Assembly (NCBI GenBank): GCA_037045355.1
Contig: JBAOHO010000029.1
Span: forward strand, 139,030 to 203,029
Origin: Candidatus Nanopelagicales bacterium
Lineage (GTDB): Bacteria > Actinomycetota > Actinomycetes > S36-B12 > GCA-2699445
Reading direction: 5' to 3'
DNA length: 64,000 nt
Shown here: piece by piece, positions 3,149-22,434 of the stretch
How the letters are laid out: each line of letters begins with the position of its first letter
Position numbering within the stretch: the first letter of the stretch is position 1
Made by a program: the position numbers and the translations under genes
The notes under the pieces: generated by a model
Databases searched by the model: none
Told to the model about the DNA's origin: nothing
Seen by the model: only the letters and a program-made list of their open reading frames with translations

Positions 3149-3226
3149 TCTCGGTGGCGGGCTCCGCCGCGGATCGAACCGGCCGAGGGCGGACTCGGGT
3201 GTAGCTATTGAAGTTAGGGTAAGGAC

Positions 3227-4147: not shown

Positions 4148-4187
4148 CCGGTCAGGTGCGTCTCCCTCGGCTCTCCTGGATCTGGGC

Positions 4188-5297: not shown

Positions 5298-5405
5298 AGT
5301 CCGTTCGAACCTTCGTCGCGCAGACCGTCCGCCAATTTCCCCTGACCTGCTACCTGCCGGCGCTGAGCCTTCCGGCGCAAGTCACGGCGCGGCCGGGGCG
5401 GATAC

Positions 5406-5431
5406 CACTAGGGGTGTCACCTACCCTAGTG
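5406..5431. promoter_or_regulatory. inverted repeat CACTAGGG-n10-CCCTAGTG abutting the start codon of the DUF4191 gene
   Basis: Perfect 8-bp arms at 5406-5413 and 5424-5431; the ATG is at 5434. It could be an operator or a 5'-UTR hairpin. The function is not demonstrable from sequence. Confidence 0.25.
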
Positions 5432-5433
5432 AG

Positions 5434-6126
5434 ATGGCCGAAACTCCCGCACCCAAGAAGAAGCGCTTCGCCTGGGTCGGCCAGGTGCGCGACAACTACC
5501 GCATGACTGCCGAGGTCTACCCATCACTCGGGTGGATCATGGCCGGGATCTTCGTGGGCATCCTGGCTATTGCCCTGGTCATCGGCTTCCTCATCGGCAA
5601 CCCCGTGACCGTCGGCCTCGTCGGTGTATCCCTAGGGCTGCTTGCTTCGATGTGGTTCTTCAGCCGCAAGGCGATGTCCGCCGCGTACAGCCAGGTCGAG
5701 GGACAACCTGGCGGGGCCGCCGCCGTCGCCCAAGCCATGCGCGGCAACTGGAGCACCACCCCCGCCGTGTCCGTCACGAAGAACCAGGACATGGTCCATC
5801 GGGTGGTCGGTCGACCAGGAGTGATTCTCGTGTCGGAGGGGCCATCCACCCGGGTGCGGCACATGCTCTCGAGCGAGAAGAAACGCACGCAGCGCTTCAT
5901 CCCCGACACGCCCATCCATGAAGTCCAGGTCGGCGACGAAGCCGATCAGATCCCGATCGCGAAGTTGCAGAAGTCCCTGTCCAAACTCCCGAATGCCTTG
6001 ACCCCCGCCGAAGTCACAGAGGTCAGGCGGCGACTCGATGCCCTCACGCAGCAGCCAGCGCCTATTCCGAAGGGACCGATGCCGCGCAGCCCCAAAGCTG
6101 CCAAGTCGCAGATGCGCGGCCGCTGA
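5434..6126 (+). CDS. DUF4191 family membrane protein (Rv2219-like)
   Basis: 230 aa with a basic N-terminus (KKKRFAWVGQVRDNYRMT) followed by two TM helices. It occupies the conserved position downstream of lipA. Confidence 0.8.
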   Translation: MAETPAPKKKRFAWVGQVRDNYRMTAEVYPSLGWIMAGIFVGILAIALVIGFLIGNPVTVGLVGVSLGLLASMWFFSRKAMSAAYSQVEGQPGGAAAVAQAMRGNWSTTPAVSVTKNQDMVHRVVGRPGVILVSEGPSTRVRHMLSSEKKRTQRFIPDTPIHEVQVGDEADQIPIAKLQKSLSKLPNALTPAEVTEVRRRLDALTQQPAPIPKGPMPRSPKAAKSQMRGR

Positions 6127-6152
6127 GTCACAGGTACGGGGCCGCTGAGCGG

Positions 6153-7724
6153 TCACTTCCCCGCGACGGGGACACGTATCAGATCTGTGACTCCCTCACT
6201 GGCGATATAGACGTATCGGCTGTCCGGCGTGAACGTCACCGCCTCTCCCTGGCCCTGAGCCGGCAGCGTCAGTACACGTGGGTCAACACCCGGTACCCCG
6301 GTGAGCAACAGCGCATCGGCGTAGTAGCGGACGACAGTCAGGGTTCGGTCCGCAGCCACTGCTCCGTCAGTGGCCGTTGACCCCACCGTCTGGATCACGG
6401 AACCTGTGGTGGCGCTTCCGTCAGCGCGGAAGTTACCTCCGAGCCGGTACACCCCACCCACGGCTTCTTTGCTGATCAAGTAGATGTCACCGTTGGCCAC
6501 CGGATCGACCAGGAGCGTCTCGCAGTTGCGTCGTCCCTCTGTCCAGGTCACCTGAATGGTCTCAACAGGCACCGACTGATCGAGCAGGGCGGCGGGCTCG
6601 GCCAGTCGATACAACTGCACCCGCTCTCGAGTCAGACCGTTGTCTCCCACATCGGCCACCCACAACTCCGGCGATCCGGCAGCGTCGCGCCCCATCCCGA
6701 TTGCCTCGATATCGCGCGCCGTGACGCCGTGCAATGCGACGACCGCGCGCACCGCGCAAGTGGTGACATCGATCGCGAATATCCGAGCGCTGTCACCGGA
6801 GTCGTTGTGGGTCCAGACGATGCCCTCGTGAAGGATCGAACTCGCGAGGCCGCTGATCTCGGGCAGTCGCGGATCGGATATCTCGCACATGACCCGAGGT
6901 GTTGCGTCGATCGGCTCAGGTGCAGGTGTTGTCGCGGTCGGAGATGCCAGGGGGTCGGGTAGAGGTGCCGACGCAGCGGGGGATGTGACCGGTTCCGGCG
7001 AGGGGGTCTCTAGTGGCAGCACTGGCGTGGGCGTCGGACTCGGATCCACGGTCGGGACCGCCGATGGTGTCGGTTCTGGCGGCTGAGCGTCGGGCGCCCT
7101 GACCAAGCCGCTCAACACGAAGTCGAACCACACCCCGTGGCGCCGCTCACTGTCGTCGTGAACCTCCACTGCAACCACGTTGCGACCAATTCGAAGCAGG
7201 CCTGTGGGAATCTCGGTTCCGCGCCAACGTCGGGGATGGCGCACGCTTCGGTTGGCGAGGGTCTGACGGTCAGGATTCGCGGAGATGTTGAAGCGCCAGA
7301 TCCGCGACCCATTGAGGTAGGCCACCACGCCATCGGCGATCTGGGCACTGAGGCGCAGCCGCGGCACTACTGCGGGGTTCTCGACCTGGAACGTCGTCCG
7401 GAAGAAGTGGGCCTGCTTCCCTGCGACAAGTTCGGTCGCCGGATCGCGATAGCCGCGACCGAAGGGGGCAGGAGCGAAGTCCCAGGTCCGTGGTGAGCGG
7501 TCGCGTGATGACCAGCGAGGCCCTGGACTTCGATCACCGCCGATGAAGTTCCATCGGGCACCCTGGCCGACCAGTGTTGCCTCGTGCTGGCCGCCTGTGA
7601 CCGCGCGCTCGACCCCCCTGGGCTGGGAGTGCGTCGGCTCGTGAAGAACCACCGCTGCGGTGGGAGGGATCGCTGCGGGCCCTCCGGCCACTGCACAGGC
7701 GACGAGCAAAGTCAGCAGCCGCAT
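6153..7724 (-). CDS. secreted two-domain protein: N-terminal jelly-roll-like module, P/T/S linker, C-terminal beta-propeller-like module
   Basis: ATG 7724 gives a signal peptide (MRLLTLLVACAVAGGPAAIP). The N-module contains ...FFRTTFQVENP...AYLNGSRIWRFN. The linker reads PEPTPSAVPTVDPSPTPTP. The C-module motifs EISGLA, WTHNDSGD and LWVADVGDN resemble SdiA-regulated / phytase-like propeller proteins; this family call is from memory and unverified. Confidence 0.6.
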   Translation of the reverse strand: MRLLTLLVACAVAGGPAAIPPTAAVVLHEPTHSQPRGVERAVTGGQHEATLVGQGARWNFIGGDRSPGPRWSSRDRSPRTWDFAPAPFGRGYRDPATELVAGKQAHFFRTTFQVENPAVVPRLRLSAQIADGVVAYLNGSRIWRFNISANPDRQTLANRSVRHPRRWRGTEIPTGLLRIGRNVVAVEVHDDSERRHGVWFDFVLSGLVRAPDAQPPEPTPSAVPTVDPSPTPTPVLPLETPSPEPVTSPAASAPLPDPLASPTATTPAPEPIDATPRVMCEISDPRLPEISGLASSILHEGIVWTHNDSGDSARIFAIDVTTCAVRAVVALHGVTARDIEAIGMGRDAAGSPELWVADVGDNGLTRERVQLYRLAEPAALLDQSVPVETIQVTWTEGRRNCETLLVDPVANGDIYLISKEAVGGVYRLGGNFRADGSATTGSVIQTVGSTATDGAVAADRTLTVVRYYADALLLTGVPGVDPRVLTLPAQGQGEAVTFTPDSRYVYIASEGVTDLIRVPVAGK

Positions 7725-7837
7725 CGTGTCTCCGATCTCGGCCTCTCGTTCCAGTCTAGGCCGGGTTCGCCCCACGATCGCTTCCATCGTTGCCACCGTG
7801 GGGCGAGCAGGACCGACAGAGCGCCGAACTGCTACTC

Positions 7838-8986
7838 CTAACGGAAGTGGTAGGCGCCGATCGCCAAGGGATACGTGTTGCGCTGCCGGGTGGCCTTACC
7901 GGTGATCGAGACGACGTCGTCCCGCTCCGTCACATCACCCATTCGGCGATACCGGTCGAAGACGTAGGGCAGCGCTGACCCGCCGAACAGGATCGGACTG
8001 TCGCTCAGCTGGAAGTGCAGGTGCGGACCGGTGGTGTTCCCGCTGTTACCCAGCCGGCCGAGTCGCTGTCCCGTTCTGACCCGGTCACCTTGCTCCACGC
8101 GAACAGAACCCTCCTTCATGTGCGCGTACACCGCGAACACGCCAGCTCGGATCCGCACCGACACATGATTGCCCAGGAACTGCACTGCGCTGGTGAGGTC
8201 TTCACCTTCGGCGCCGGGTGGGATGTCCGGCATGTTGTTGCGGACCCTGACCACGACCCCGTCCGTTGCCGACATGATCGGCGAACCAAAGGCGAAGTAG
8301 TCACTGTTGCGGGAGCCGTCACCGTCAGCCTGGCCACCGCCTCGAAGTTGCACGAAGTCGATCGCGAATCGCTCCATCTGCTGCCAAGTGCCACCAGTAC
8401 TGAGTCGAGCCTTGGAATGCGGGCTGTCGGTGCAGCACGCGTTCAGATTGAGCCACCCTTGTCCGCGCAACGGCGGTGCGATGCTGAGCGGAACGTGTGT
8501 GCGGATCGGGGCCTCGGGTGACCTGACGCTCCACTTCACCCCGGTCTGGCGCAAGGTCTCGGGCAGTTCGGTACCGGGCGGCACTTTGTACTCGATTCGA
8601 TGCCTGATAGCGGTGGAGCGGGGACCGGCCCGCATATCCAGAGGCGCCACAAGCGTCTGACTCGGCGCTATGACTCCCGGCGCGGGGCCCGGGTAGATCG
8701 TGGTGAGCGCATCCCGCAGATCGTCGCCTCGCAGCCAACTCAGTGTCCGACCGCGTTGGTCCTCGATCCACAACTCCTCAGGGATCAAAGGGACCGGAAA
8801 CAGGTTGGTGAGTCCCACCGTGTAGACGATCCGATGGTGTCCGTCATCGCCCGTGATCCGCCAGGGGCCTTGCGAGACGGAAACCGAGACTCCGACGAGC
8901 CGACCCGAGTCAGCAGTCACCGGTGACGCGATCGGAACCAGGGTGAGGACACCGGCTGTCAGGAGTACGGGCAGACGCATGCACAT
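7838..8986 (-). CDS. secreted M23 family metallopeptidase
   Basis: Signal peptide MCMRLPVLLTAGVLTLVPIASPVTA. The C-terminal LytM/M23 signature is ...VYAHMKEGSVRVEQGDRVRTGQRLGRLGNSGNTTGPHLHFQL. Confidence 0.85.
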   Translation of the reverse strand: MCMRLPVLLTAGVLTLVPIASPVTADSGRLVGVSVSVSQGPWRITGDDGHHRIVYTVGLTNLFPVPLIPEELWIEDQRGRTLSWLRGDDLRDALTTIYPGPAPGVIAPSQTLVAPLDMRAGPRSTAIRHRIEYKVPPGTELPETLRQTGVKWSVRSPEAPIRTHVPLSIAPPLRGQGWLNLNACCTDSPHSKARLSTGGTWQQMERFAIDFVQLRGGGQADGDGSRNSDYFAFGSPIMSATDGVVVRVRNNMPDIPPGAEGEDLTSAVQFLGNHVSVRIRAGVFAVYAHMKEGSVRVEQGDRVRTGQRLGRLGNSGNTTGPHLHFQLSDSPILFGGSALPYVFDRYRRMGDVTERDDVVSITGKATRQRNTYPLAIGAYHFR

Positions 8987-9083
8987 GCTTCAAGTCTGCC
9001 TGGCGAGTCCAGCGATCACGGGGCACTTGGTCCTTGTGATCATTGTCGCTGAGGCGGTCAGCGCTGTTCGGAGGACGGCGGCG

Positions 9084-9791
9084 TCAGGTCCCCGTGTAGG
9101 TGATGGAGACTGTGGGCGAGGTCGCCAGCACTTTGCCTGTCGGGTTCAATACCTGGACGCGGTACCGACCGACCCCTGGCGCGTATCCCTCCACGGTTCC
9201 CGCCGCTCTTCCGGACTTGTTCAACCGTCGCACATCGACGCCCTGCCAACTGGTGCGACCCTTCACCTGGATCGCGGCGCGCATTCCGGCCGCCATCTCG
9301 GCCGGCGTGACGGTGACGCTGTAAGGGACATTGACCCGGATCGGGGATGAACTCTTCGACAGTGTCAGGCGCGGAGACAGGGACAGCTTCGTCCAGGTGA
9401 ACGTGGCCACCGTACTGCGGGCGAGGGTCCGCCCGTCTCCGGCGTTGACCAGAACGGCACGATATCGCTTCGTCCCGGAGGTTTTGGACGTGACCGTACT
9501 TGCGGCCACACCATCATTGCCGACACGAGGTCGATCGATGGTGCGCCAGCGAGTACCGCTGTCGATCTGGAGCAGAACCGTCCGACCTGCGGTCTTTGCG
9601 GAGGGCGTCGTTGTGACGCGGTAACTCACTGCTGTGGTCACGGCAGCGGACTTGCCACTGATCGCCAGCGATGCGGTGTACATGACTCCCGTCGGCCGGG
9701 CTGATTGCCCGTTCCCAGAGGCGATGGAGAGCGGTCCGGCGACCACGATCACCAGCACCGCGGAGAGGACCGATAGTGCGCGAGTCTTCAT
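9084..9791 (-). CDS. secreted protein with two tandem Ig-like modules
   Basis: ATG 9791 gives the signal peptide MKTRALSVLSAVLVIVVAGPLSIASG. It is followed by two modules of about 100 aa with the same pattern (...GRTVLLQIDSGTRWRTID...RYRAVLVN... and ...AAIQVKGRTSWQGVD...RYRVQVLN...). Confidence 0.5.
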   Translation of the reverse strand: MKTRALSVLSAVLVIVVAGPLSIASGNGQSARPTGVMYTASLAISGKSAAVTTAVSYRVTTTPSAKTAGRTVLLQIDSGTRWRTIDRPRVGNDGVAASTVTSKTSGTKRYRAVLVNAGDGRTLARSTVATFTWTKLSLSPRLTLSKSSSPIRVNVPYSVTVTPAEMAAGMRAAIQVKGRTSWQGVDVRRLNKSGRAAGTVEGYAPGVGRYRVQVLNPTGKVLATSPTVSITYTGT

Positions 9792-9862
9792 AGGTCCAGT
9801 GTCGACCTGGCAGCTTCTCACCCTGAAGGGGTTCGCACGCAGTCGGGACCAACGTCCCGGGA

Positions 9863-10597
9863 CTACTCGACGGAACCGACTCTCGTCGCGGTCAGAACAG
9901 CGGCTACCTGATTGTTGCTGGCGGTGGCGGCCATGTCGGAATCACACACCAGCGCGACGGCCTGTCCGGCAGTCACGGTCATGGCGTATGACACCGAAAC
10001 GGGCGCGTACTCGAATGCGGCCCCGTTACCGGTGAACTTCCCCAGCCACAGGTTGGCGACATCGGACACCGGCACCCCATCGCGGGCAAGGTCGCAGTAG
10101 ACGAATCCGTTCTGGTTCGACGAGACCAGGGCGGATGCGGTCACCAGGTAGCTTCCCGCCGGTAACGTCCGGCCCACGACTGCGGTGTCGGTCGTCAGGA
10201 TGTTCACGGCGGTGAATGGTGCAACAACTTGGTAGGTGGGTCCGTTCGGCCCCTCCGGACCGGTCTGCCCCTGAGGGCCCGTCTGCCCCTGAGGACCGGT
10301 GGCGCCTTGAGGACCAGTAGCGCCAGTCGGGCCCGCCGCACCGGGACGGCCGTCGACTCCCTGTGGCCCGCGGGGCCCCTGAACGTTCCAGGACACCTTG
10401 CGTTCATTCTTCTTGCAGGGCGTCTCTTTGGATTTGACGATTCGGACTTGGCCGGTCTTCTTCTTGATGCAGGCGACCACCCTGGACTCCGCATCGGCAG
10501 CCCAAGCCGGGTGGCCACCCACGAACCCCCCGGCGGTCAGAACCAGAGCCACCAGGGCTACAGCCAGAACATGTTTCCTAACGGGAACGACCGACAC
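9863..10597 (-). CDS. secreted collagen-like triple-helix repeat protein
   Basis: Signal peptide (...[17 protein letters not shown]), then a Cys-bracketed basic stalk ([20 protein letters not shown]). Next come 16 uninterrupted G-X-Y triplets ([24 protein letters not shown]...GPNGPT, DNA 10235-10378) and a C-terminal globular domain of about 120 aa. Confidence 0.85.
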
Positions 10598-10646
10598 AGC
10601 AGCCTCCTACGTCGAAGGGACTACCTCAGAGTAGGAGCTTGGCTGA

Positions 10647-11156
10647 TCACACCCACTGGTACACGGTGACTCCGCCCGTGCTGGCGTTCGGCTTCACGGA
10701 GATCCGGGCGCTGTCGTTGCCCTTGACGAAGATCGTGATGCCGCGGGAAGTCCCGTAGTCCTCCCAACCGTTGGCAATCATGTCCTTCTTCTGGGCCTTG
10801 GTGACCGCGTCGACCTCTCCGGGGGCCATGTACTCGACCGCCTTCACCGGGTGGTCGGAGGTCGTCTCGATCGGTTCCCCGGTTCCGGTCGCTTGGACCA
10901 CGCCTTCGCTCGGGGCCGGGATGTCGGTTGGCCAGTCGGCCGGCGGCTCGGTGGCATTCGACAACACGAGATCCCAATCCCCGACCTTCACCGTGAATGT
11001 ATCCGCGGAGGCCGTGGGAGCGCCGGAAGCTGAGGCGGAACTTTCGGGCGAAGTGCTCGGCGATGACGTCGTGGTGCCGGTCCCGCCGGAGCATCCCGCG
11101 ATGACCATGACCGCCGCTGCGCCTACCCCGATGATTCCGATGACCCTGCTGCCCAT
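10647..11156 (-). CDS. lipoprotein, function unknown
   Basis: Lipobox ...AVMVIAGCSGG followed by a Ser/Thr-rich tether and a domain of about 110 aa. It is divergent from the GH64 gene. Confidence 0.6.
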   Translation of the reverse strand: MGSRVIGIIGVGAAAVMVIAGCSGGTGTTTSSPSTSPESSASASGAPTASADTFTVKVGDWDLVLSNATEPPADWPTDIPAPSEGVVQATGTGEPIETTSDHPVKAVEYMAPGEVDAVTKAQKKDMIANGWEDYGTSRGITIFVKGNDSARISVKPNASTGGVTVYQWV

Positions 11157-11358
11157 GATCCCTCCAGACCCAAGTGCCTACACTCCAGTGCACCACATCC
11201 CCGCCTGGGCTCGGATCCGGGGGAATGCTGCGCTGGGCCCGGGCTCGCATCCCGTCTGCAGCACCACTGCGCTGTTCGGGCGGATTTGCGTGTCTCGGCG
11301 ATGGATTTGCGTGTTACATACGGATGACCGAAGCGCTCTCTGTGCCGATGGTGGCAAT

Positions 11359-13134
11359 ATGACTCGGATTCGCCGTCTGCTCACGACAGTCACTGCTGTC
11401 GCCGTCACGACTCCGGGGCTGATCGTCACCACCGCGACCCCCAGCAATGCTTCAGAGGGCCTGAAGGTCGTGGTGGTGAACAACAATCCGGAGTACCGCG
11501 CGGACCAGGTGTGGGTCAAGGCGACCGGAAACGGTGCGGCGGCGCCGGAGTTGCCGTTGTCGCAGCGGTCATCGTTCACGCTGGACAGTGTCAGTTCCGG
11601 CCGCGTGTGGGTCACGTTGGGCAAACCGTTGAACTCGTCGACGTTCCCGAGCCCTGACACCTCGGATGTGCGTTTCGACACCGTCGAGTTGACCTATCCC
11701 GGGGTGGCGAACCTGACTGCGGTGGACATGCTCGGGATCCCGATGGATATCGAGACGTTCGACGCGGCGGGGAATCTGGTGGCGTCCAAGAAGTTCGCGT
11801 GTTACACCGACGTGATCCAAGACACCGTCAAGGACCGGTTGACCGCAGCGGGTGGGGACTACCGCAAGGTGGTCCGCACCGACGCCAACGGCAACTTTCT
11901 GCGCCTGGTGTCTCCGAACATCGTCTCCGGCGCCCATCCCAGCGGTTACCCGCGATTCGAGTCCTACATCAGCTCACTGAAGGGCGAACAGCTGACCGTG
12001 CGCGGTACGGCGATGGGCAAGAACTACCGATACACCGGCACGTTCGCCGACGACCCCCACGATCCCAACGGTCCGGGATCGATCCGGCTGACCGATCAAG
12101 GTCCCGACCAGTTGGCCCCGATGTACGTCAAGGGCAGTTCGCTGGCCGGTAACGACAGTAACGACACCAACGGCATCTACGGCAACAACAGTCCCTACTA
12201 CGTGGACGGCAAACTGCACTCCGGTAACGACGTCTACGGTGCGGTCTACCGCGACCTGGTCGCCGGGTTCGCCTACGGATTTTGGGGCAGTCCCGCCTAC
12301 GGCAACGACAGCGGCCGCTTCGACGTGTCCACCGCGCCGGGCCCGTTCGAAGGCGCCCAACCCGACGCCGCGAACTACAACGTGTGGGCCGCGGCGCTGT
12401 GGCCGATCACTGACGCCTACGGCTTCCCGTACGGTGACACGTTCAACCACCAGCCCGACCGCAACCCGATCGTCGAGCTGCCGACCGATGGCACGCTGAA
12501 GATCACCATCGATCCCGACACCAGCCCGGCCGGATGCGCCGGCGGTACCACCCCGACGCCGACACCGACACCCACGCCCACGGTCACGACTGCGCCCCCG
12601 GCCACCCCCACGCCGACACCGACACCCACGCCCACGGTCACGACTGCGCCCCCGGCCACCTCCACGCCGACACCGCACCGACACCGACGCCCACGGTCAC
12701 GACGGCGCCCCCGGCCACCCCGACGTCCACGCCGACGCCGACACCGACAGACGACACAGACTACCAGCCGATCGACGCCTTGCGTGCGTTCCGCCTACGA
12801 GCGGATCGAGGCCGAGGCGCCCACCGCCACCAACGGCGGCGTGATCGACGGCGGCCATGTCGGCAACCTCGGTAACGGCGACTGGCTCGAATACGGCACC
12901 GTCGACTTCGGCAGCAGCGGCCCCTACCAGGTCAACTCCCTGGTCTCCGGCGGCTCGTCGGGCTCCGGCCTGGTCACCTACCGCGTCGACTCCCCCACCG
13001 GACCTGTCGTGGCGGACTTCGCCATCGCCAACACCGGCGGCTGGAACACCTACAAGCAGATCCCCGCCAACGCCGGCGGAGTCACCGGCGAACATAAGCT
13101 GTACGTCACCTTCACAGTCCGGCTACTCCGGTGA
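11359..13134 (+). CDS. GH64-like beta-1,3-glucanase with P/T linker and CBM6-like module; the ORF ends prematurely after a frame break near 13115
   Basis: ATG 11359 gives a signal-like N-terminus (MTRIRRLLTTVTAVAVTTPGLIVTTATPSNA). The body resembles laminaripentaose-producing GH64 enzymes as I remember them (VVVNNN..., SGRVWVTLGKPL, RFDTVELTY...AVDMLG with candidate catalytic E and D, AYGFPYGDTFNH). It is followed by a carbohydrate-binding module (SAYERIEAE...GNGDWLEYGTVDF...TGGWNTYKQIP). The ORF-track start 10771 overlaps the opposite-strand lipoprotein gene and was rejected. Confidence 0.7.
   Translation: MTRIRRLLTTVTAVAVTTPGLIVTTATPSNASEGLKVVVVNNNPEYRADQVWVKATGNGAAAPELPLSQRSSFTLDSVSSGRVWVTLGKPLNSSTFPSPDTSDVRFDTVELTYPGVANLTAVDMLGIPMDIETFDAAGNLVASKKFACYTDVIQDTVKDRLTAAGGDYRKVVRTDANGNFLRLVSPNIVSGAHPSGYPRFESYISSLKGEQLTVRGTAMGKNYRYTGTFADDPHDPNGPGSIRLTDQGPDQLAPMYVKGSSLAGNDSNDTNGIYGNNSPYYVDGKLHSGNDVYGAVYRDLVAGFAYGFWGSPAYGNDSGRFDVSTAPGPFEGAQPDAANYNVWAAALWPITDAYGFPYGDTFNHQPDRNPIVELPTDGTLKITIDPDTSPAGCAGGTTPTPTPTPTPTVTTAPPATPTPTPTPTPTVTTAPPATSTPTPHRHRRPRSRRRPRPPRRPRRRRHRQTTQTTSRSTPCVRSAYERIEAEAPTATNGGVIDGGHVGNLGNGDWLEYGTVDFGSSGPYQVNSLVSGGSSGSGLVTYRVDSPTGPVVADFAIANTGGWNTYKQIPANAGGVTGEHKLYVTFTVRLLR
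12556..12722 (+). repeat. 54-bp tandem repeat x3 encoding the TPTPTPTPTVTTAPPAT linker; the third copy carries about 5 extra nt
   Basis: Copies start at 12556, 12610 and 12664. The first two are near-identical. The third reads ...ccgacaccgCACCGacaccgacgccc..., which changes the frame. Confidence 0.85.
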
Positions 13135-13812
13135 CTACGTCAACCTCGACCGGTTCCAGTTCTCGGTCAAGGGCGCGCCGCGTCCGGACCTGATGTCGGC
13201 CTACACCGTCACCGAGGCCGAGCAGACCGCTGACCGCCACCGCAAGGTGACCGCCGACGACCGCGTCGTCCGACTGCGCAAGGGCACGTGGCTGGACTAC
13301 GGCACCGTCGACTTCGGCAAGCGCGGACCGGCCGAGGTTGACCTCACTGGTGGCCAACGCCTCGTCGCGCCCCGCGACGGTGTCATTCCGACTCGATGCG
13401 CGCACCGGACGCAAGATCGCCGACTTCACCGTCGTCGGGCAAGGCCGGCGGGGACAGCTTCAAGCAGTACCGCACCAAGACCCGTCCCGTGACCGGCACC
13501 CACCGCCTGTTCGTGACGGCCACCTCGAAGACACAAGCGCGGTGCCGTCGACTTCGACCGGTTCCAGTTCTCGGTCAAGGGCGCACCACGTCCCAACCTG
13601 ACCACCGTCGCCGCCCGTTCGGTCTCGGCCACGCCCTGCCCGACCCCAACTCCGACCCCCACCCCCACCACCCCGACACCGACGCCGACACCAGACACCG
13701 ACACCGACACCCCACACCTACACAGACGCCGACTCCAACACCCACCCCGACACCGACGCCGACCCAGACGGCGACCCCGACCCCGACGCCGACAGCCACC
13801 GCGCCGACCGGT
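13135..13812 (+). pseudogene. frame-scrambled second CBM6-like module plus P/T linker, linking the GH64 ORF to the downstream CBM6-phosphoesterase ORF
   Basis: Pieces of one module are readable in three frames. In order: SGYSGDYVNLDRFQFSVKGAPRP...GTWLDYGTVDFGKRGPAEV; then TSLVANASSRPATVSFRLDARTGRKIADFTVVG; then AGGDSFKQYRTKTRPVTGTHRLFVTATSK; then GAVDFDRFQFSVKGAPRPNL...PTPTPTPTP. I saw no stop codon in the stitched reading. Confidence 0.55.
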
Positions 13813-15201
13813 AGCCGCTCCGCCTACGAGCCCATCGAGGGCGAGTCCGCCGATGCCAACAATGGAGCCCGCATCGACGGTGGACGGGTATCCGACCTCG
13901 GCAACGGCGACTGGCTGTCCTATCGCGACGTCGACTTCGGCGCGATCGGTCCGCACCAGATCTACTCGCTGGTCGCCGGCGGTTCGTCGGGCTCAGGGCT
14001 GGTCAGCTACCGCATCGATTCGCCGACCGGACCCGTGATCGGGAACTTCGCCGTCGGAAACACTGGCGGATGGGACACGTTCAAGCAGATCCCTAGCAAC
14101 GTGTCCTCCTCACCGACAGGTCGACATGACGTGTACATCACCTTCAGTTCCGGCTACCGCAGTGAATACGTCACTCTCGACCGGTTCCAGTTCCAGGTCA
14201 GGGGCGGACCGGTTCCCAATCTGAAGCAGCCGGGTACTCCTACGCCCGCTCCCACGACCTCCCCGACGGGTTCTGCAACGCCGACGGCAACGAGTAGTCC
14301 GACACCGACACCGCCACCGACACCGACACCGCCACCCACGCCCACACCGACGTCAGTGCCGTCGCAGCCAGGTGACGTGGTCATCGCTGCCGCTGGTGAT
14401 ATCGCTTCGGGCACCGACGGTGGGGACTCGCGGTACACCGCGGATCTGGTGATGAGCAACATCAACCGCTACCACAAGGTCCTGGCGTTGGGAGACCTGC
14501 AGTACCCCGACGGCCGTTACAGCGACTTCATCACCTCCTACGACAAGACCTGGGGCCGGTTCAAGAACAAGACCGCGCCGATCATGGGTAACCACGAGGC
14601 CGACGGCGCCGGGTACTGGGACTACTTCAACGGCATCGGCGTCACTGAGGGCCCCGCCGGCACCCGGAACAAGGGCTGGTACTCCTACGACACCGGCGAC
14701 TCCGCGACCAGCGGCTGGCACATCGTGGCGCTGAACTCCGAATGCATGGGCAAACCATGCGGCACCGAGCAGCTGGCCTGGCTGCAAGCCGATCTGGCCG
14801 CCAGCCAGAAGCAGTGCACCGCCGCGTACTGGCACAAACCTCGCTTCTCGTCCGGCAGCCACGGAAACGACTCAGCCATGCAGCCGTTGTGGAACCTGAT
14901 GAACCAGTACAACGCCGAAATCGTGCTCAGCGGCCACGACCACAACTACGAACGGTTCGCCCCCATGAACACATCCGGGGTCCGCGATGACGCCCGCGGT
15001 GTGCGACAGTTCGTGGTCGGCACCGGAGGCATCGGATTTCGCAGCGTCGGCAATACGGCCAACTCACAGGCCCGCAACGCCAACACCCACGGAGTCCTGG
15101 AACTGACCCTCAAGGCCAACTCCTACGACTTCAACTTCGCCCGCGCCAACTACCCCGGAAACGGCACCTTCACCGACTCCGGCAGCGCCACCTGCCACTG
15201 A
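13396..15201 (+). CDS. CBM6-like module + P/T linker + calcineurin-like metallophosphoesterase (the first ~130 codons of the ORF are out of frame relative to the upstream module)
   Basis: From about 13813 there is a third CBM copy (SAYEPIEGE...GNGDWLSYRDVDF...TGGWDTFKQIP...YVTLDRFQFQVRG). After a linker comes a phosphoesterase domain (VIAAAGDIA, LALGDLQY, GNHE, WHKPRFSSGSHG, LSGHDHNYERF). Confidence 0.75.
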   Translation: MRAPDARSPTSPSSGKAGGDSFKQYRTKTRPVTGTHRLFVTATSKTQARCRRLRPVPVLGQGRTTSQPDHRRRPFGLGHALPDPNSDPHPHHPDTDADTRHRHRHPTPTQTPTPTPTPTPTPTQTATPTPTPTATAPTGSRSAYEPIEGESADANNGARIDGGRVSDLGNGDWLSYRDVDFGAIGPHQIYSLVAGGSSGSGLVSYRIDSPTGPVIGNFAVGNTGGWDTFKQIPSNVSSSPTGRHDVYITFSSGYRSEYVTLDRFQFQVRGGPVPNLKQPGTPTPAPTTSPTGSATPTATSSPTPTPPPTPTPPPTPTPTSVPSQPGDVVIAAAGDIASGTDGGDSRYTADLVMSNINRYHKVLALGDLQYPDGRYSDFITSYDKTWGRFKNKTAPIMGNHEADGAGYWDYFNGIGVTEGPAGTRNKGWYSYDTGDSATSGWHIVALNSECMGKPCGTEQLAWLQADLAASQKQCTAAYWHKPRFSSGSHGNDSAMQPLWNLMNQYNAEIVLSGHDHNYERFAPMNTSGVRDDARGVRQFVVGTGGIGFRSVGNTANSQARNANTHGVLELTLKANSYDFNFARANYPGNGTFTDSGSATCH

Positions 15202-15232
15202 GGACCGAGAACTCACCTGTCGACCAACGCGG

Positions 15233-18200
15233 TCAGAACGTGTTCTCACCCGAAGACTGTCGGGGGAACATCCGCCGACGATCGTCTGAGCCAGACTGCC
15301 GGAAGTCGGAGTCCCCGGCAGTCTGGCTCGACCAATCCCTCACAGCAGTGGCCACCTCCGCTCTCGAGCGCACCCCCAATCGGAGGAAGATCCGCCTCAG
15401 GTGAGACTCGACAGTCCTGGTGCTGATGAACAACTGCGCCGCGATCTCCCTGTTGCCTCTCCCTCGTTCCACCAGATTCGCAACCTCGATTTCACGCTTG
15501 CTGAGGGCCGCCGGACCGCCACCTAGGGCACCTGAGTCGTTTCGGTGCGGAAGCCGAATCCCTGTCACACGCAGATATCTGCGGACCTCAGACGCAAGCC
15601 CGACGGCGCCGCTGCGGTCATAGAACGCAAGCGCTCGCGTCAGCCGCTCGACTCCCTCGACTGTGAGCCCTAACGCCAACTCAGCGCGCGCAGCCGTCAC
15701 TTCCGCCTTGGCGAGCTCCACGGGCAGTTCGCGATCCGCGACGGCGATGACTGCCTCGTCCGCCGCACTCAGCGCCGCCTGGGAATCGCCCTCTGCCAGC
15801 AGGACAGTGGCCATGGCCCGCTTCGCCCAACAGGTCAGCAGGGGCGGCTGGCCCTCCCCCGATTGCTGTAGAGCCCATTCCGCCCAGTGCCGGGCTCGTG
15901 CGACATCCTGTGCCGCGAGTTCCGATTGGGTGAGGAGCTCCAGGACCAGACCGAGGGTCACGGAGACGACCTGGTCGAGACCCGGGCCTCCGCAGTGATC
16001 GAGCAGAAGCAGACGCGCCCGACATGGGTTACCCAGGCTGAGCCAGACCGGCGCCACGGAAGCCGCGACGGTTGCACGGGCTGCGGCTCTGCGTGTCTTG
16101 GGGAGGATGTCCTCGGCTGACTCCGCGGCTCGTCTGGCCGCCGAAATGTCGCCGGCCACCGCACAAAGCAGAGCTCGCCGAGCCATCGCAACCGCCACCA
16201 TCTCGGGGTCGCCGGTCATCCGGGCGGTGTCCTCCGCGTCGAGATTCACATCCTCGGCGCGATCAAACCTGCCCAGCGCCGACCACGCTCCCTCGCTCAC
16301 GGCTCGCAGCATGCTCTGGGCCGCCGCGTTACCGCTGGCTTCCGCGGCGAGGAGTCCTGCATCGGCCAACCGCAGGGCAAGGCGGGGACGTCCGAGCCAC
16401 TGCTGCACGGAACCCAGTAATCCGACAGCGTCGGCCCATCTCCTGCGCTCATCGTCCGGGAGTACGTCGAACTTCGCCTGCGCCTGCTCAGCCATTGCTG
16501 CCGTCAGAACTCCGTCACCCAATCGGGCCTCCGAAAACGCCCGAGCGGCGGTGACCGAGAACTGCATGGCTACCGTCCCGTGGGAGTCCGCGATTGACGC
16601 CGCATTCGCGCCCCACTGTCGAGCCTGCTCAACGTCGGCACGGCGGACCACATGGAGCATTGCCAGACACTCCAGCGCCATCCGCTCGACCGAAGGGGCA
16701 CTGGGCAGTTGGTCCAGGATCGGCTCGATACGCGTCCGAGCCTGGTCGTCGCGGCCGAGCCAAGTCTCCGCGCGAACCACCGTGGCGATGAGAGCCGCTC
16801 TTGCGATCACGGTCTCCTGGGCGCTGCGCTCCATCCGTTCGATCATCAGCTCGCGAGCAGTATCAGCGTGTCCCGCCGCAATCAGACAATCCGCCTGCGC
16901 GACGGCCAGGAAACTACGTGCGGCCGCCTCCGGGCCGGACGACGGACAGAGCCGCAGCGCCGCACCGTACCAACGCGCAGCCGAACCAGGCGTGTAGGGG
17001 CGAGCCTCTGCAGCAGCATCCCCCAGAGTCTGCATCGCTTCAGCATCTCCGGGCACAGCGCCCCGCTCCAGATGGGGGGCGATCTGAACCGCAGATGCCC
17101 CCCGCTCCTTCAGAAGCGCCGCGGCACGGCGGTGACAGTCCATCCGCCAACCGGGCCCAGCCGCCTGATAGACGACCGTGGCCACGATGGGATGACGGAA
17201 TGTGAAGGTCACGTGGTGATCCGCGACCGGCTCGACCAGCCCCACGGCACACAACTCATCGACCGACCGCCCCGCATCCTCATCCGACATGCCCGCAAGA
17301 GCCGCGCACAGGTATAGATCGAAGTGATCCGCCACTACCGCACCAGTGCGCGCCAACAGGCGAGCCTGGGGGCTTACCGCAGCCAACTGCCCGAGGATGC
17401 TGTCGATCACGGGCGCCGGCCAACGTGACTGAGAATCTTGCCCCGGTGACGAATGGCTGGGCAGCGGGTTTCGAGCGGCCTTGGCCAGTTCGGTGAGGTA
17501 GAAGGGATTGCCGCCGGAGATCTCCAGGATCTCGTTTCGCTGCTGCACCGAAATGTCGGTGAGAATCTCGACCGCCGACAGTCGATCGAGCGGCCCCAAC
17601 TCAATGGTCTCCCGAAGCGTCCCGCCCACATCAGGACTGGTTGCCGTCCCTGAGCGCACAGCGAAACCGACCAGCAGTGGGACGCGTAACCCACGCCGGA
17701 TCAAGTAGTTCAGGACAGCACTCGTCGCTTCGTCACTCCACTGCATGTCGTCGATGAGGAGCGCCACACCCGCGTGTTCCGCCGCCAAGGCAGCCAAGGC
17801 GTGCCTGGTCGCCCGGGCGACCAGGAGGTTGTCGGGTCTGGTGTGACGTCGATCCGCCGCTACTCGCAATCGCAGGCCCGGCAAGACCGCCGCCAGGTCC
17901 TGTATTTCGAACCGGTCGAGGTGGTCGCCCTCCGGGGCGTCCGATGTGGTTCGGACCGGGAGATCGATGAGTAGTTCGTCCAGCAGAGCGATGAGCAGGC
18001 TGAAAGCGCGGTCCTGCTCGGCCCGGGCAGCGGACGCCCGCACGACGATCATCCGCTGATTCGCCGCCTCGTCCGCCAATACGTTCAGCAACGCGCTCTT
18101 GCCGATCCCGGGAGGTCCACTGATCTCAACGAGTCGCACTGACTCAGGGCGTTCGGGGCCATTGGCCGATACGGACTGAAGCGGCAATACGGCGCGGCGC

Positions 18201-18250
18201 AACTGTTCCATCTCGGTTTCGCGACCGCGGAGGAACTGCGAGTTCGGCAC
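15233..18250 (-). CDS. LAL-type (large ATP-binding LuxR family) transcriptional regulator
   Basis: 1005 aa. It has an N-terminal Walker A motif (ISGPPGIGKSAL), a long helical/TPR-like middle region, and a C-terminal LuxR HTH (LSKREIEVANLVERGRGNREIAAQLFISTRTVESHLRRIFLRLGV). Confidence 0.9.
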   Translation of the reverse strand: MPNSQFLRGRETEMEQLRRAVLPLQSVSANGPERPESVRLVEISGPPGIGKSALLNVLADEAANQRMIVVRASAARAEQDRAFSLLIALLDELLIDLPVRTTSDAPEGDHLDRFEIQDLAAVLPGLRLRVAADRRHTRPDNLLVARATRHALAALAAEHAGVALLIDDMQWSDEATSAVLNYLIRRGLRVPLLVGFAVRSGTATSPDVGGTLRETIELGPLDRLSAVEILTDISVQQRNEILEISGGNPFYLTELAKAARNPLPSHSSPGQDSQSRWPAPVIDSILGQLAAVSPQARLLARTGAVVADHFDLYLCAALAGMSDEDAGRSVDELCAVGLVEPVADHHVTFTFRHPIVATVVYQAAGPGWRMDCHRRAAALLKERGASAVQIAPHLERGAVPGDAEAMQTLGDAAAEARPYTPGSAARWYGAALRLCPSSGPEAAARSFLAVAQADCLIAAGHADTARELMIERMERSAQETVIARAALIATVVRAETWLGRDDQARTRIEPILDQLPSAPSVERMALECLAMLHVVRRADVEQARQWGANAASIADSHGTVAMQFSVTAARAFSEARLGDGVLTAAMAEQAQAKFDVLPDDERRRWADAVGLLGSVQQWLGRPRLALRLADAGLLAAEASGNAAAQSMLRAVSEGAWSALGRFDRAEDVNLDAEDTARMTGDPEMVAVAMARRALLCAVAGDISAARRAAESAEDILPKTRRAAARATVAASVAPVWLSLGNPCRARLLLLDHCGGPGLDQVVSVTLGLVLELLTQSELAAQDVARARHWAEWALQQSGEGQPPLLTCWAKRAMATVLLAEGDSQAALSAADEAVIAVADRELPVELAKAEVTAARAELALGLTVEGVERLTRALAFYDRSGAVGLASEVRRYLRVTGIRLPHRNDSGALGGGPAALSKREIEVANLVERGRGNREIAAQLFISTRTVESHLRRIFLRLGVRSRAEVATAVRDWSSQTAGDSDFRQSGSDDRRRMFPRQSSGENTF

Positions 18251-18331
18251 TCCCCAACAGTGCCCGCTGAGTAGCCCGCGTGCTACCCGTCTCGTCCGGT
18301 CGGGCGCATCCAGACCGGACGTGATACCCGA

Positions 18332-20482
18332 CTAGCTCTGCGGCACGGGAGTCACGTCTCCCAGCGGTGGCCCCTGGAAGGTCACGTTGAGTTCTGTCAC
18401 CGGTGTTTGCCACTTGAAGTCGAACGGTTCCGAACTACTGAACGGGAATCCCAATTGCGCCGACTCGTAGTACCCGGCAGGCCAGCCCCCGGCCGCTCCC
18501 ATCGTGACGGGGACCGGCCAGTTGTTCCCGTATGCCGTGGCGATGGGGCTGCCGGTTGCAGCGTTGACCTTGAGCCCGGGCAGGCTGACGGTCGGTGATG
18601 CGGTGCACCCGAACTGGGCGGGGACTGCCGCGGCGCCATCGGGGGTCACCATGTCCTCCAGATTGGCCGCCGTCACGGTTCCCAGGGCCACTGCCTGACT
18701 GCCGCCCGCCGAGGCCGCCTGAATCGACACGGGCTGGTTGTTGGCGTTCGGAGCGAGGTAGGGGGTGTTGATGCCGTTGGTGGCCTCGGACACCGATTCC
18801 TCGATGTAGACCGGCTGCCCATCGGCGGTGACGCCAAAGAAATTGACCAACCAGTCGGCGTTCTGCGGGAGTTGACCCGAGCCGTTGGTCGCGGTGGTGG
18901 CCAGCGTGCTCTGTTCGACTGTGGTCGGAGCGCCGTTCCCGAAAGGAGTCGTCAGGGAGGCCGTCATCTGCGACAGATCGCAGCGCAATGTGTAGTCGCC
19001 AGTCGAATCCACCGTCGCATTCATGACCGGCGCGTTGCCGTCGTTGAGCAAGCCGGAGCTGTACTGCGGATTCGTCAGGTAGCTGAGTTGGATGTCCATC
19101 TGGCCCAAAGGAGGTTCGTTGGTACCTCCGTAGTTGCAGTAGTACGGACCGACATCAACACTGGCCCCCTCACATACGGCAACGGCGTCAGGGAATCCCG
19201 GGTTGGGGCCGACGTACTGGATCAGTCCGTCCTGGAATGTGGCGGAGCCGCCCGTGTAGGTCTTCGACGAGGCGTTCGGGGAGACCATCGGAGCCGGCAC
19301 GCCACCGTTCCAGTAGTACATGACGTTGGTCTGCGCACCGAGGGCTTGCTGCAGGGTTCCACCGATGAACGCACTACTGGGCACGTCGGTGAAAGCGCCC
19401 TGATTGCCGGCAGCGGGATTACCGGCCCAGGTATTCGTTGGCGGCCAGTCGGCTTGAGTCGGATCCGTCACGCCGTTCGTCCCGAAGCCGGTGACAGCCG
19501 TCGTCACTCCGAACAGCTGTGGGTATTCGGAGGTCTCATTGCAGGTATCGACCTTGAGACCTTCGAGGAAGGAGACGACGAAACGTACGCTGGCTGCGGC
19601 TACGGCTCCCACGATCCCGGCTCCGGTGTAGGTGCGTGGGTTGAAAGCTGAATCGACCGCTTGCTGCCCGGCAACGTTGCCCGAGTTGACGAGATCGGTC
19701 ATCAAAGTTCCCTGCGTCCCCGGGGCGTTGAGGCCTTTCTCGGCCCCGTAGAGCCCGATCGGGGGGTCATTGGGGGTGGGAGTCTCGCGTGACTTCCCGT
19801 TCTTCCAGTTGGGGTACTGGGCGTAGGCGAACAGGACGGTGTCGCCTGCGTTGGCTGTTTCGACAGCAGCGGGGGGCGGCGCCGAGGCTGTTGCCGCGTA
19901 CATGCATTGAATGACGGGTTGGAAGGTCACTTGCTGCTGGAACGGGGAGTTGTTGTTCACGTAGATGTTGTTGTAGACGGGAGTATTGGAGTTGAGCTCA
20001 GAGGCGTAACTGCCGTCAGCCACCTGCGTGCCGTGAATCAGGGAACGCCGCAGCATCTGGCGCTGCTCGATGGCTCCCGCCGTCACGCGCTGAACCTTCC
20101 GCTTGGACCACTTGCCTTTGACCAAGGGGCCCGCATTCACTTGGGTGACCTCATGGGGAGATCCACCCCTCTTAGTGTCCTTGCGGTGGCTCACGGACAC
20201 CGCCACTGCGGCTCGACGACCTTGGAACCCACGATCCCGCATCTTGTCCGAGGCGCCCTTCGACAGGGGCACCTTCATGGTCATCACCCCGGGCTTCGCG
20301 ACCTTGCGGCTCTGGTGGGATCGCATCAACAGCGCGCTGTCGGGCAAGACCTCCACCGATCGCGGCTTGTTCACCAACGTGTACTTCTTCTTGCCCACGG
20401 CCACGCGCATCCGTACTCGGTCCTGGCGCAGACCATTGCTTGCGCGGGTCCGCTTGGGATCGACGAACACCTTCGCTACCAC
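18332..20482 (-). CDS. large orphan exported protein (N/G/T/A-rich), no recognisable domain; the signal peptide appears displaced into another frame (20476-20682)
   Basis: 716-aa ORF starting at GTG 20482. The same frame stays open and coding-like upstream (...ATPATASKVEAANHVARAGYAPQWVQYPYLAKDGNGKFS) but contains no start codon. The overlapping 68-aa ORF 20476-20682 begins with a Sec-type signal (MLRAIAVTTALATAAAVGSTVGADA). This implies a frame break near 20598-20612 (ggggcggcggc). Confidence 0.65.
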   Translation of the reverse strand: MVAKVFVDPKRTRASNGLRQDRVRMRVAVGKKKYTLVNKPRSVEVLPDSALLMRSHQSRKVAKPGVMTMKVPLSKGASDKMRDRGFQGRRAAVAVSVSHRKDTKRGGSPHEVTQVNAGPLVKGKWSKRKVQRVTAGAIEQRQMLRRSLIHGTQVADGSYASELNSNTPVYNNIYVNNNSPFQQQVTFQPVIQCMYAATASAPPPAAVETANAGDTVLFAYAQYPNWKNGKSRETPTPNDPPIGLYGAEKGLNAPGTQGTLMTDLVNSGNVAGQQAVDSAFNPRTYTGAGIVGAVAAASVRFVVSFLEGLKVDTCNETSEYPQLFGVTTAVTGFGTNGVTDPTQADWPPTNTWAGNPAAGNQGAFTDVPSSAFIGGTLQQALGAQTNVMYYWNGGVPAPMVSPNASSKTYTGGSATFQDGLIQYVGPNPGFPDAVAVCEGASVDVGPYYCNYGGTNEPPLGQMDIQLSYLTNPQYSSGLLNDGNAPVMNATVDSTGDYTLRCDLSQMTASLTTPFGNGAPTTVEQSTLATTATNGSGQLPQNADWLVNFFGVTADGQPVYIEESVSEATNGINTPYLAPNANNQPVSIQAASAGGSQAVALGTVTAANLEDMVTPDGAAAVPAQFGCTASPTVSLPGLKVNAATGSPIATAYGNNWPVPVTMGAAGGWPAGYYESAQLGFPFSSSEPFDFKWQTPVTELNVTFQGPPLGDVTPVPQS

Positions 20483-20694
20483 GCTGAACTTGCCGTTGCC
20501 GTCTTTGGCCAGATAGGGGTACTGGACCCACTGCGGCGCGTAGCCCGCCCTGGCGACGTGATTGGCTGCTTCGACCTTGGATGCGGTCGCGGGCGTGGCG
20601 GGGCGGCGGCATCGGCCCCCACCGTGGACCCGACCGCAGCGGCGGTGGCCAGAGCAGTTGTCACAGCGATGGCACGAAGCATCGGCTCTCCCGA

Positions 20695-20730
20695 CTATTG
20701 GTGGGCCCGAATAGCTATTGGTGGGCCCGA
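20695..20730. repeat. perfect 16-bp direct repeat CTATTGGTGGGCCCGA x2 (20-bp period) just upstream of the orphan protein's signal-peptide start
   Basis: Copies at 20695-20710 and 20715-20730. The ATG of the signal-peptide ORF is at 20682 (minus strand). The repeat lies between that start and the glnA terminator. Confidence 0.8.
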
Positions 20731-20770
20731 GTAGCGGTGGTATGGCAGCCTAACTCCTCCGGCCGACCAC

Positions 20771-20808
20771 GGCCCCGATCTGAACGGTTTCACGCTCAGA
20801 TCGGGGCC
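20771..20808 (-). terminator. stem-loop terminator candidate downstream of glnA
   Basis: Perfect 13-bp inverted repeat GGCCCCGATCTGA-n12-TCAGATCGGGGCC beginning 8 nt after the glnA stop (20816-20818). There is no U-tract, which is common for actinobacterial terminators. Confidence 0.6.
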
Positions 20809-20815
20809 ATATCTG

Positions 20816-22240
20816 TCAGATGTCGTAGTACATCTCGAACTCATGCGGATGCGGACGCAGCCGAATGGGATCGATCTCATTGGCCCGCTTGTAGTCGACC
20901 CACGTCTCGATGAGGTCGGGCGTGAAGACGTTTCCTTCGGTGAGGAAGTCGTGATCCTCCTCGAGAGCTGTCAAGACCCCTTCCAGCGACGAGGGCACCT
21001 GCGGGATGTCCGCGGCTTCGTCCGGGGGCAACTCGTAGAGATCCTTGTCGACGGGGGCCACGGGTTCGATCTTGTTCTTGATCCCGTCCAAACCGGCCAT
21101 CAGCATCGCCGAGAACGCCAGATACGGGTTGCTCGACGGATCCGGCACGCGGAACTCGATGCGCTTGGCCTTGGCGTTCGACCCCGTGATCGGGATGCGG
21201 ATGCAGGCCGATCGGTTGCGCTGTGAGTAGACCAGATTCACAGGAGCCTCGAACCCGGGCACCAGACGGTGGAACGAGTTGGTGGTCGGGTTGGTGAACG
21301 CGAGCACCGCAGGGGCATGGGCCAGGAGTCCGCCGATGTACCAACGAGCCGTGTCAGACAGTCCGGCGTAGCCGAGCTCGTCGTAGAACAGCGGATCGCC
21401 GTCCTTCCACAGCGACTGGTGGCAGTGCATGCCGGAACCGTTGTCCCCGAACAAAGGCTTGGGCATGAATGTCGCGCTCTTGCCATTGGCCCAGGCCACG
21501 TTCTTGATCACGTACTTGAACAGCATCACCTGGTCGGCTGCGTGCAGCAGGGTGTTGAACTTGTAGTTGATCTCGGCCTGGCCGGCGGTACCGACTTCGT
21601 GGTGAGCTCGCTCGACCTCGAGGCCGACATCCATGAGAGTGCGGCTCATCTGGTCGCGCAGGTCCGCGTAGTGGTCGACCGGGGGAACGGGGAAGTATCC
21701 GCCCTTGTACCGCGTCTTGTAACCGCGGTTTCCGCCCTCTTCCTCGCGACCCGAGTTCCAAGCGCCCTCGATCGAGTCGATGAAGTAGTACCCGGCGTTC
21801 TGCTTGGTCTCGAACCGAACGTCGTCGAAAACGTAGAACTCGGCCTCGGGACCGAAGTACGCCGTGTCGGCGATGCCGGTGGACCGCAGGTAGTTCTCCG
21901 CCTTGGCCGCGATCTGACGAGGGTCGCGGGAGTAGGGCTCGTCGGTGAACGGGTCGCGGATCGAGAAGTTCATGACGAGTGTCTTCTCAGCCCGGAATGG
22001 ATCGACGAAGGCGGTGACGGGGTCCGGCACCAGCTTCATGTCCGACTCGTGGATGGCCTGGAAGCCGCGGATCGAGGACCCGTCGAACATCTGGCCGTCC
22101 GTGAAGAACGCATCGTCGACACTGGCCACGGGCACGTTGAAGTGCTGCATCACGCCAGGCAGATCACAGAACCGGACGTCTATGAACTTGACGTCCTCGT
22201 CCTTGACGTAGCGCAATACCTCGTCTGCGTTGTTGAACAT
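20816..22240 (-). CDS. glnA: glutamine synthetase type I (GlnA1-like)
   Basis: 474 aa with full-length GSI features ([29 protein letters not shown]..., ...[12 protein letters not shown]..., and the adenylylation-loop region ...DKDLYELPP). A strong RBS (AGGAGGG) precedes the ATG. Confidence 0.97.
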
Positions 22241-22323
22241 TCACCCTCCTAGGTGTCCGGAGCGAGCCGGGCGGTCGCCGCCCAGTTTCCCCCTCCTGGT
22301 CGTTGCGACAGTAGGCGGGGGGC

Positions 22324-22361
22324 ATTAATCACCCGTGTCCCTTGTGTTTCGCCCGTGTTAC
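22324..22361 (-). promoter_or_regulatory. candidate GlnR box upstream of glnA
   Basis: The minus strand reads GTAAC-acgggc-GAAAC-acaagg-GACAC-gggtga-TTAAT. The first half matches the published actinobacterial GlnR a/b-site pattern gTnAc-n6-GaAAc exactly. The second half is degenerate. The site ends about 84 nt upstream of the glnA ATG. Confidence 0.45.
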
Positions 22362-22434
22362 GTGCTCCAGGGTTCGCTCTCAGTCCACGACAACTGGTCT
22401 CGCCCTTGTCACGGAGTCGACGACCGGCCTCGGA

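Follow-up and report, generated by a model that had tools for sequence, protein, structure and literature searches.

In a 64,000-nucleotide stretch of a genome assigned to Candidatus Nanopelagicales (the window; contig JBAOHO010000029.1), the region 11359-15201 (+) very likely constitutes one gene, coding for a modular and presumably secreted enzyme of about 1280 residues. The enzyme combines a glucanase of glycoside hydrolase family 64 (GH64), three family 6 carbohydrate-binding modules (CBM6) and a phosphatase resembling the purple acid phosphatases (PAPs). In a three-frame translation of 11340-15210, coding-like sequence changes frame repeatedly. We consider with good confidence that these breaks are single-base errors in the consensus of a metagenome assembly that is error-prone and probably built from long reads, and not fixed mutations.

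The modules follow in the order GH64, Pro/Thr (PT) linker, CBM6, CBM6, PT linker, CBM6, PT linker and metallophosphoesterase (Metallophos), in a locus of 62-75% GC. With frames named by start coordinate modulo 3, the coding path leads from frame 1 to 0 (~12675), 1 (~12775), 2 (13116), 0 (13334), 1 (13435), 2 (13530) and back to 1 (13690/13709). Frame 1 begins with the start codon and a putative N-terminal signal peptide (MTRIRRLLTTVTAVAVTTPGLIVTTATPSNA, 11359-11451, recognised by eye in the translation; the start is that of the annotated protein MEI2718440.1) and continues through the intact GH64 β-1,3-glucanase catalytic domain (11452-12546). Linker 1 (12547-12789) contains two breaks, a base missing at ~12674/12675 and an extra base at 12774, and its last third is sensible only in frame 0. 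CBM6 module 1 (12790-13192) remains in frame 1 to 13113; an extra base at 13116 places its final strands, together with the start of module 2, in frame 2. The divergent module 2 (13196-13600) carries extra bases at 13334, 13435 and 13530, and its remainder is read in frame 0, then 1, then 2. Linker 2 (13601-13818) has extra bases at 13690 and 13709. From there, frame 1 covers the intact CBM6 module 3 (13819-14223), linker 3 (14224-14370) and the intact PAP-like metallophosphoesterase (14371-15201) without a break, up to the stop codon at 15199-15201.

Pfam was run on hand-stitched translations, and CBM6 modules 1 and 2 exceed the cut-off only after frame repair. Glyco_hydro_64 (PF16483) scores 50.7 bits against a curated cut-off of 27 (profile positions 59-224 of 370), CBM_6 (PF03422) scores 100.6, 54.0 and 90.5 bits for modules 1, 2 and 3 (cut-off 28.9), and Metallophos (PF00149) scores 41.7 bits (cut-off 21.5; positions 3-191 of 191). 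NCBIfam gave no match for the GH64, CBM6-3 or Metallophos segments. An earlier reading of the sequence by eye (the original prediction) had placed a GH64 domain, PT linkers, three CBM6-like modules and a phosphoesterase in the same order and at the same places, and the profile searches of the stitched translation recover all three families above their cut-offs.

The fused architecture is found intact in relatives. A scan of genome contigs identified a 4.2-kb SPAdes contig from a metagenome-assembled genome (MAG) of an uncultured Actinomycetes member (L008, CAZJNU010000163.1; 77% identity in the best segment). It contains a single ORF of 1226 residues (16-3696), in which a signal-peptide-like N-terminus is followed by GH64, PT, CBM6, PT, CBM6, PT and Metallophos. 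An 86% identical orthologue from another sample (L005, ENA ERZ25039459 contig_11414) has a frame open at 11085-14801 that encodes a PT linker, CBM6, CBM6, PT, CBM6, PT, GH16, CBM6, PT and Metallophos, with four CBM_6 matches. Its GH64 domain is encoded directly upstream, and a single shift of frame within linker 1 sets it apart from the open frame. From GH64 to CBM6-3, and again over Metallophos, the window and L005 are colinear. The sole difference is a 1.2-kb cassette of L005 (12700-13960) that adds a GH16 laminarinase and a fourth CBM6 between CBM6-3 and Metallophos. A more remote species, 69% identical in GH64 and 59% in Metallophos, has one contig that ends with GH64-PT-CBM6 (L006) and another that opens with the end of a CBM6 followed by PT and Metallophos (L007). 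These contigs share a 105-bp overlap of 100% identity, bridging GH64-CBM6 to CBM6-PT-Metallophos, and a second CBM6 is located between the two parts (P0190).

Further contigs cover the C-terminal half of the gene. Four short-read contigs of relatives at 77-79% identity (L001-L004) all begin inside a PT(K) linker in frame with Metallophos and have, as in the window, a downstream LuxR gene in the opposite orientation. A MEGAHIT short-read contig of 98.6% identity (L017, window 13665-22402) bridges linker 2, CBM6-3, Metallophos and the LuxR gene, and L016 (99.9% identity, window 14198-15834) bridges CBM6-3 to the downstream genes. Linker 3 is gap-free against both L016 and L015, a short-read contig of 98.9% identity. 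The population of the window is represented, at 98.6-99.9% identity, in SRR14932560, ERR1725969 and the runs underlying ERZ27239146. Except for L008, all short-read contigs of the family end in a PT linker or at a CBM6 end (L001-L004, L006, L007, L009, L010, L015-L017). Because they break in the PT linkers, short-read data systematically hide the fused architecture.

Taken together, the contigs indicate that the glucanase-phosphoesterase fusion is real, ancestral and the true form of the gene, and that the domain combination has been kept in at least four lineages, with identities of 59-86%. The giant fusion suspected in the original prediction is therefore supported by L008, L005 and the L006/L007 pair. 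Orthologues with two separate genes, divided by a stop and a start between CBM modules 2 and 3, had been named as the finding that would speak against it. No orthologue shows such a split, and a stop followed by a new start is absent between CBM modules in every orthologue compared.

Eight single-base edits turn the window sequence into one stop-free ORF of 3837 nt and 1278 codons, in which the PT linkers read cleanly. One base is added near 12674, and one is removed at each of 12774, 13116, 13334, 13435, 13530, 13690 and 13709. The continuous coding sequence without in-frame stops that had been described by eye is thus recovered, and the roughly seven frame changes are found where they had been named, the one near 13700 consisting of two insertions 19 nt apart. 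A single -1 shift near 13700 was dropped as the alignment with L017 shows two +1 insertions. In L017, where the bases at 13690 and 13709 are absent, the linker reads cleanly as TPTPTPTPTQTATPTPTPTQTPTP... and is in frame with CBM6-3 and the phosphatase. The five extra bases from 12774 to 13530 are seen against L005 (window 12760-13640 aligned), and all five lie outside homopolymer runs. A tandem repeat of 54 bp in linker 1 (12548-12736, 3.4 copies, 89% matches) encodes TPTPTPTPTVTTAPPA units. Judging from the repeat unit and the clean TPTP obtained after repair, the shift at ~12674 probably reflects one base missing in the third copy.

The repaired frame is free of nonsense codons, and none of the indels is longer than 1 bp. 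Compared with L005, the ratio of nonsynonymous to synonymous substitution rates (dN/dS) is 0.13 for GH64, 0.18 for CBM6-1, 0.20 for CBM6-2 and 0.10 for Metallophos; CBM6-3 gives ~0.4 on a poor alignment. Values of 0.10-0.20 in four of the five domains indicate that the repaired frame is under purifying selection.

Several observations point to the assembly as the origin of the breaks. The contig without the insertions at 13690 and 13709, L017, comes from the same population. A second GH64-CBM6 locus with ~97% protein identity is present in the same MAG, on a contig of 358,863 bp (consecutive accessions MEI2716837.1 and MEI2716838.1). In its CBM fragment (P0187), the 13116 site is passed without a change of frame, as "KLYVTFKSGYSGDYVNLDRFQFSVKGAPRPDLMSAYTVTEAEQTADRHRKVT", and the frame is lost near 13250, at a point where the window stays in frame. 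The GH64 fragment of this copy (P0138) drops out of frame and returns to it within the catalytic domain, a region that is intact in the window. Because the second copy breaks at positions other than those of the window, the breaks do not appear to be inherited. The second locus could be a recent paralogue or belong to a co-binned strain.

Unrelated genes of the window are broken in a comparable way. Filtering of ORFs by GC content at third codon positions (GC3) was non-discriminating in this high-GC DNA; instead we used a codon-usage Viterbi frame path, trained on long ORFs of the window and checked with Pfam. The match of NIF3 (51128-52284, -) to its profile is spread over three frames (positions 2-58, 56-121 and 158-251). 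A molybdopterin oxidoreductase (approximately 37606-39800, +) falls into four to five frame segments and an MFS transporter (23211-24374, +) into four; a secreted protein (46951-48143, +) and an RNB-like protein (48938-50204, -) are split over frames as well. These split genes have no stops in their coding frames, and most of the inferred shifts are +1 (insertions), which suggests that the indel problem extends across the whole contig.

One such site can be compared directly with other assemblies. At 20603, the window lacks one base relative to L015 and L017, two independent short-read contigs. The deletion severs the signal peptide MLRAIAVTTALATAAAVGSTVGADAAAP from the remainder of a protein that is intact in L015 and L017 (783 or 780 residues). 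An additional segment of 19 bp at 20707 and a missing base at 20771 are further differences of the window. Comparable indels are therefore present in genes unrelated to the enzyme, and the deletion at 20603 is absent from independent assemblies. We infer that the six indels of the enzyme gene other than 13690 and 13709 are errors, too. False frameshifts driven by indels, with inflated pseudogene counts, have been documented for long-read MAGs, especially at low coverage (PMC8103633). The mis-assembly of CBM and PT-linker DNA that the original prediction had offered as its second possibility holds in this form only, as single-base errors at the level of the consensus.

Some points weigh against this interpretation. 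In the scan of metagenome contigs with the repaired CBM6-2, no same-population sequence over the six sites 12674-13530 was found, the relatives recovered being at most 43% identical; in the protein search with the repaired CBM6-1 and CBM6-2, the second MAG copy was the sole high-identity match. Exact look-ups of the ORF 13396-15201, P0121, P0138 and P0187 in the contig index yielded no entry. The argument for these six sites is thus an indirect one. L005, the reference for five of the sites, is itself error-prone, its linker 1 being frame-shifted once and its LuxR gene split. The errors are clustered and not uniform, with 0 indels against L015 over 14302-20600. As a guess, the clustering could stem from the second near-identical copy or from a co-binned or co-assembled strain. 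The functional coupling of glucanase and phosphatase considered below is, for its part, pure inference. Repeat-induced mis-polishing was also considered as a cause of the clustering, and is weakened by the divergence of the CBM copies, which are only 67-74% identical.

The clustering would also fit a genuine pseudogene, in which the fused gene has lost its function in this strain, gathering frameshifts while the second MAG copy decayed independently. Eight indels lie within ~1.05 kb, against none in the flanking 6.3 kb compared with L015, the second copy is broken too, and the other broken genes of the window could mean that the genome is rich in pseudogenes. We nevertheless regard a pseudogene as unlikely. 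Relaxed selection, nonsense codons and larger deletions are not seen in the repaired frame: dN/dS in the indel-bearing modules (0.18-0.20) is close to that of the intact domains, and no indel exceeds 1 bp. Seven of the eight changes are 1-bp insertions, and for bacterial pseudogenes a bias towards deletions is generally reported. Two of the lesions are not shared across the population, L017 lacking both linker-2 insertions, and the breaks of the second copy differ. The widely conserved NIF3 is among the broken genes, and the 20603 indel is missing from two independent short-read assemblies. The decay invoked together with the giant fusion is thus not supported, in view of L017, the second copy, the unrelated broken genes and the dN/dS values.

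Two further explanations would deny the fusion itself. Separate GH64-CBM6 and CBM6-Metallophos genes could have been joined through their similar CBM6 and PT-linker DNA, the MAG having two similar loci and the short-read contigs of the relatives breaking in PT linkers or at CBM ends. Such a chimera is very improbable given that the CBM6-CBM6-PT-CBM6 order is colinear in L005, from another sample, that L008 holds the whole fusion on one short-read contig, that L017 spans linker 2, CBM6-3, Metallophos and the LuxR gene, and that the DNA of the CBM copies is no more than 67-74% identical. Alternatively, CBM6-2 and CBM6-3 could belong to two adjacent genes, with a genuine stop and start between them. 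The ORF 13396-15201 (601 residues) does have an ATG, and NCBI annotated separate pieces. However, this ATG falls within CBM6-2 in another frame, with no signal peptide after it, L005 and L008 have no stop between the modules, and a partial ORF in L017 continues in frame from linker 2 through Metallophos. We give this arrangement hardly any credence. Programmed frameshifting was rejected: the eight sites have no common motif and are not conserved in the orthologues, and unrelated genes are similarly broken. A fused gene obscured by consensus errors remains the preferred explanation, and the apparent frame-scrambled giant gene should not be taken for gene decay or exotic recoding.

The relationship between the CBM6 modules can be traced in their DNA. 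The original prediction had called the three copies paralogous on the basis of a shared 18-mer. We find it at 13145, 13553 (one mismatch) and 14176, with a chance expectation of 0, and the copies are mutually 67-74% identical in nucleotide and 43-64% in amino-acid sequence. These values indicate that the copies are diverged paralogues, and not near-identical repeats. CBM6-3 matches the CBM6 structures 2V4V, 1GMM and 1W9S in the PDB, the last being the BH0236 module that binds laminarin, a β-1,3-glucan (E=4e-14). Outside the clade, the nearest database relatives of the modules are GH16-CBM6 'beta-glucanase' proteins of Micromonospora, Streptomyces and Kribbella, at 41-49% identity.

The GH64 domain is divergent, and a PDB search with the single sequence (phmmer) returned no match. 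A profile of 20 GH64 homologues matches 3GD0 (E=9e-11), the structure of the laminaripentaose-producing β-1,3-glucanase LPHase, as well as 9VSF, 9VP9 and 5H9X. All 20 homologues have E110 and D123, which correspond in the alignment to Glu and Asp of the SEYT...VDMF segment of 3GD0. The two residues are 16 positions apart in LPHase, where we take them to be the catalytic pair. The metallophosphoesterase domain aligns with kidney-bean PAP (1KBP, E=8e-6), with GDLQY, GNHE, WHKP and GHDH over GDxxY, GNHE, H and GHxH. The first metal-ligand motif, AAGDIA, lies outside this alignment and was read by eye; with it, the motif set for the seven metal ligands (GD / GDxxY / GNH(E/D) / VxxH / GHxH) is complete. 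The phosphatase domain has thousands of bacterial homologues at ~50% identity, which are often fused to further extracellular modules, among them RTX repeats, DNRLRE, Big and TIG domains, and it belongs to a very large bacterial family labelled "acid phosphatase type 7".

The architecture allows a tentative functional proposal. Judging from the signal peptide read by eye, the protein would be exported. The CBM6 modules, by their association with GH64 and GH16, may dock the enzyme on β-1,3-glucan, either of the laminarin type or in cell walls. GH64, joined by GH16 in L005, would cleave the docked glucan, and the tethered phosphatase would free phosphate from organophosphates at or near the same particle. 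It is possible, although we rate it as somewhat doubtful, that the conserved gene of these uncultured Actinomycetes of high GC content, a clade that NCBI labels Candidatus Nanopelagicales, encodes a secreted enzyme with two genuine functions. In such an enzyme, a PAP-like domain tethered via β-glucan-binding CBM6 modules to one or two β-1,3-glucanases (GH64, with or without GH16) would target phosphate scavenging to β-1,3-glucan-rich particles or to the cell walls of algae, fungi and oomycetes. If the phosphatase works while docked on β-glucan, this would constitute a new coupling of polysaccharide attack to phosphorus acquisition. A twin-arginine signal, suggested by the RR in MTRIRRLL, is not conserved in L005 or L008, and no claim is made for it.

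Our literature search found no paper on GH64 combined with a metallophosphoesterase or on CBM6 combined with a purple acid phosphatase; a broader search returned nothing relevant, and substrate-targeted phosphatases of the CBM6-tethered kind were not found described. The domain families and the modular glucanases that carry CBM6 are well known. The addition of a PAP-like phosphatase is the combination that we found in no paper.

In the NCBI annotation of the 228,401-bp contig, only 11359-13134 is called at this locus, as the 591-residue 'carbohydrate-binding protein' MEI2718440.1, which is identical to the frame-1 ORF. The NCBI protein records (MEI2718440.1 and its neighbours) show that the annotation pipeline has split the locus into several proteins. 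The locus exemplifies a gene that ends up as several annotated "proteins" through clustered single-base errors in the consensus of a MAG. Downstream lie a LuxR-type regulator (15233-18250, -; MEI2718443.1) and a glutamine synthetase (20816-22240; MEI2718445.1). The LuxR gene is on the same strand as the enzyme gene in L005 and on the opposite strand in the window, L001, L003, L004, L015 and L017. Just upstream of the locus, an ORF of 244 residues (9863-10597, -) has a signal-like N-terminus and a run of collagen-like Gly-X-Y repeats.

The breaks at this locus resemble the pseudo-frameshifts described for long-read MAGs (PMC8103633): clusters of 1-bp indels split genes into neighbouring ORFs in different frames, do not recur when the same population is assembled from short reads, and hit unrelated genes. 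Unlike in those cases, the errors in the window lie outside homopolymer runs and are strongly clustered.

As for the enzyme, it shares with LPHase of Streptomyces matensis (3GD0) and with the modular GH64 enzymes 5H9X and 9VSF a GH64 domain above the cut-off and an invariant putative Glu/Asp pair. Like known GH64 enzymes, it is actinobacterial, predicted to be secreted and equipped with appended binding modules. It differs from these enzymes in its divergent sequence, with only ~40% of the Pfam model matched, and in its three CBM6 modules and C-terminal phosphatase domain. Its CBM6 modules are homologous to those of the actinobacterial GH16-CBM6 laminarinases and of Bacillus halodurans BH0236 (1W9S), and L005 contains a GH16-CBM6 cassette of this kind. 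In contrast to these laminarinases, the CBM6 of the window is triplicated and situated between GH64 and the phosphatase, and its ligand is a predicted one. With the PAPs, represented by 1KBP and mammalian TRAP, the C-terminal domain has the metal-ligand motifs in common, whereas the N-terminal domain of the plant PAPs is absent. Unlike the PAPs, this putative phosphatase is tethered by PT linkers to CBM6 modules and a glucanase.

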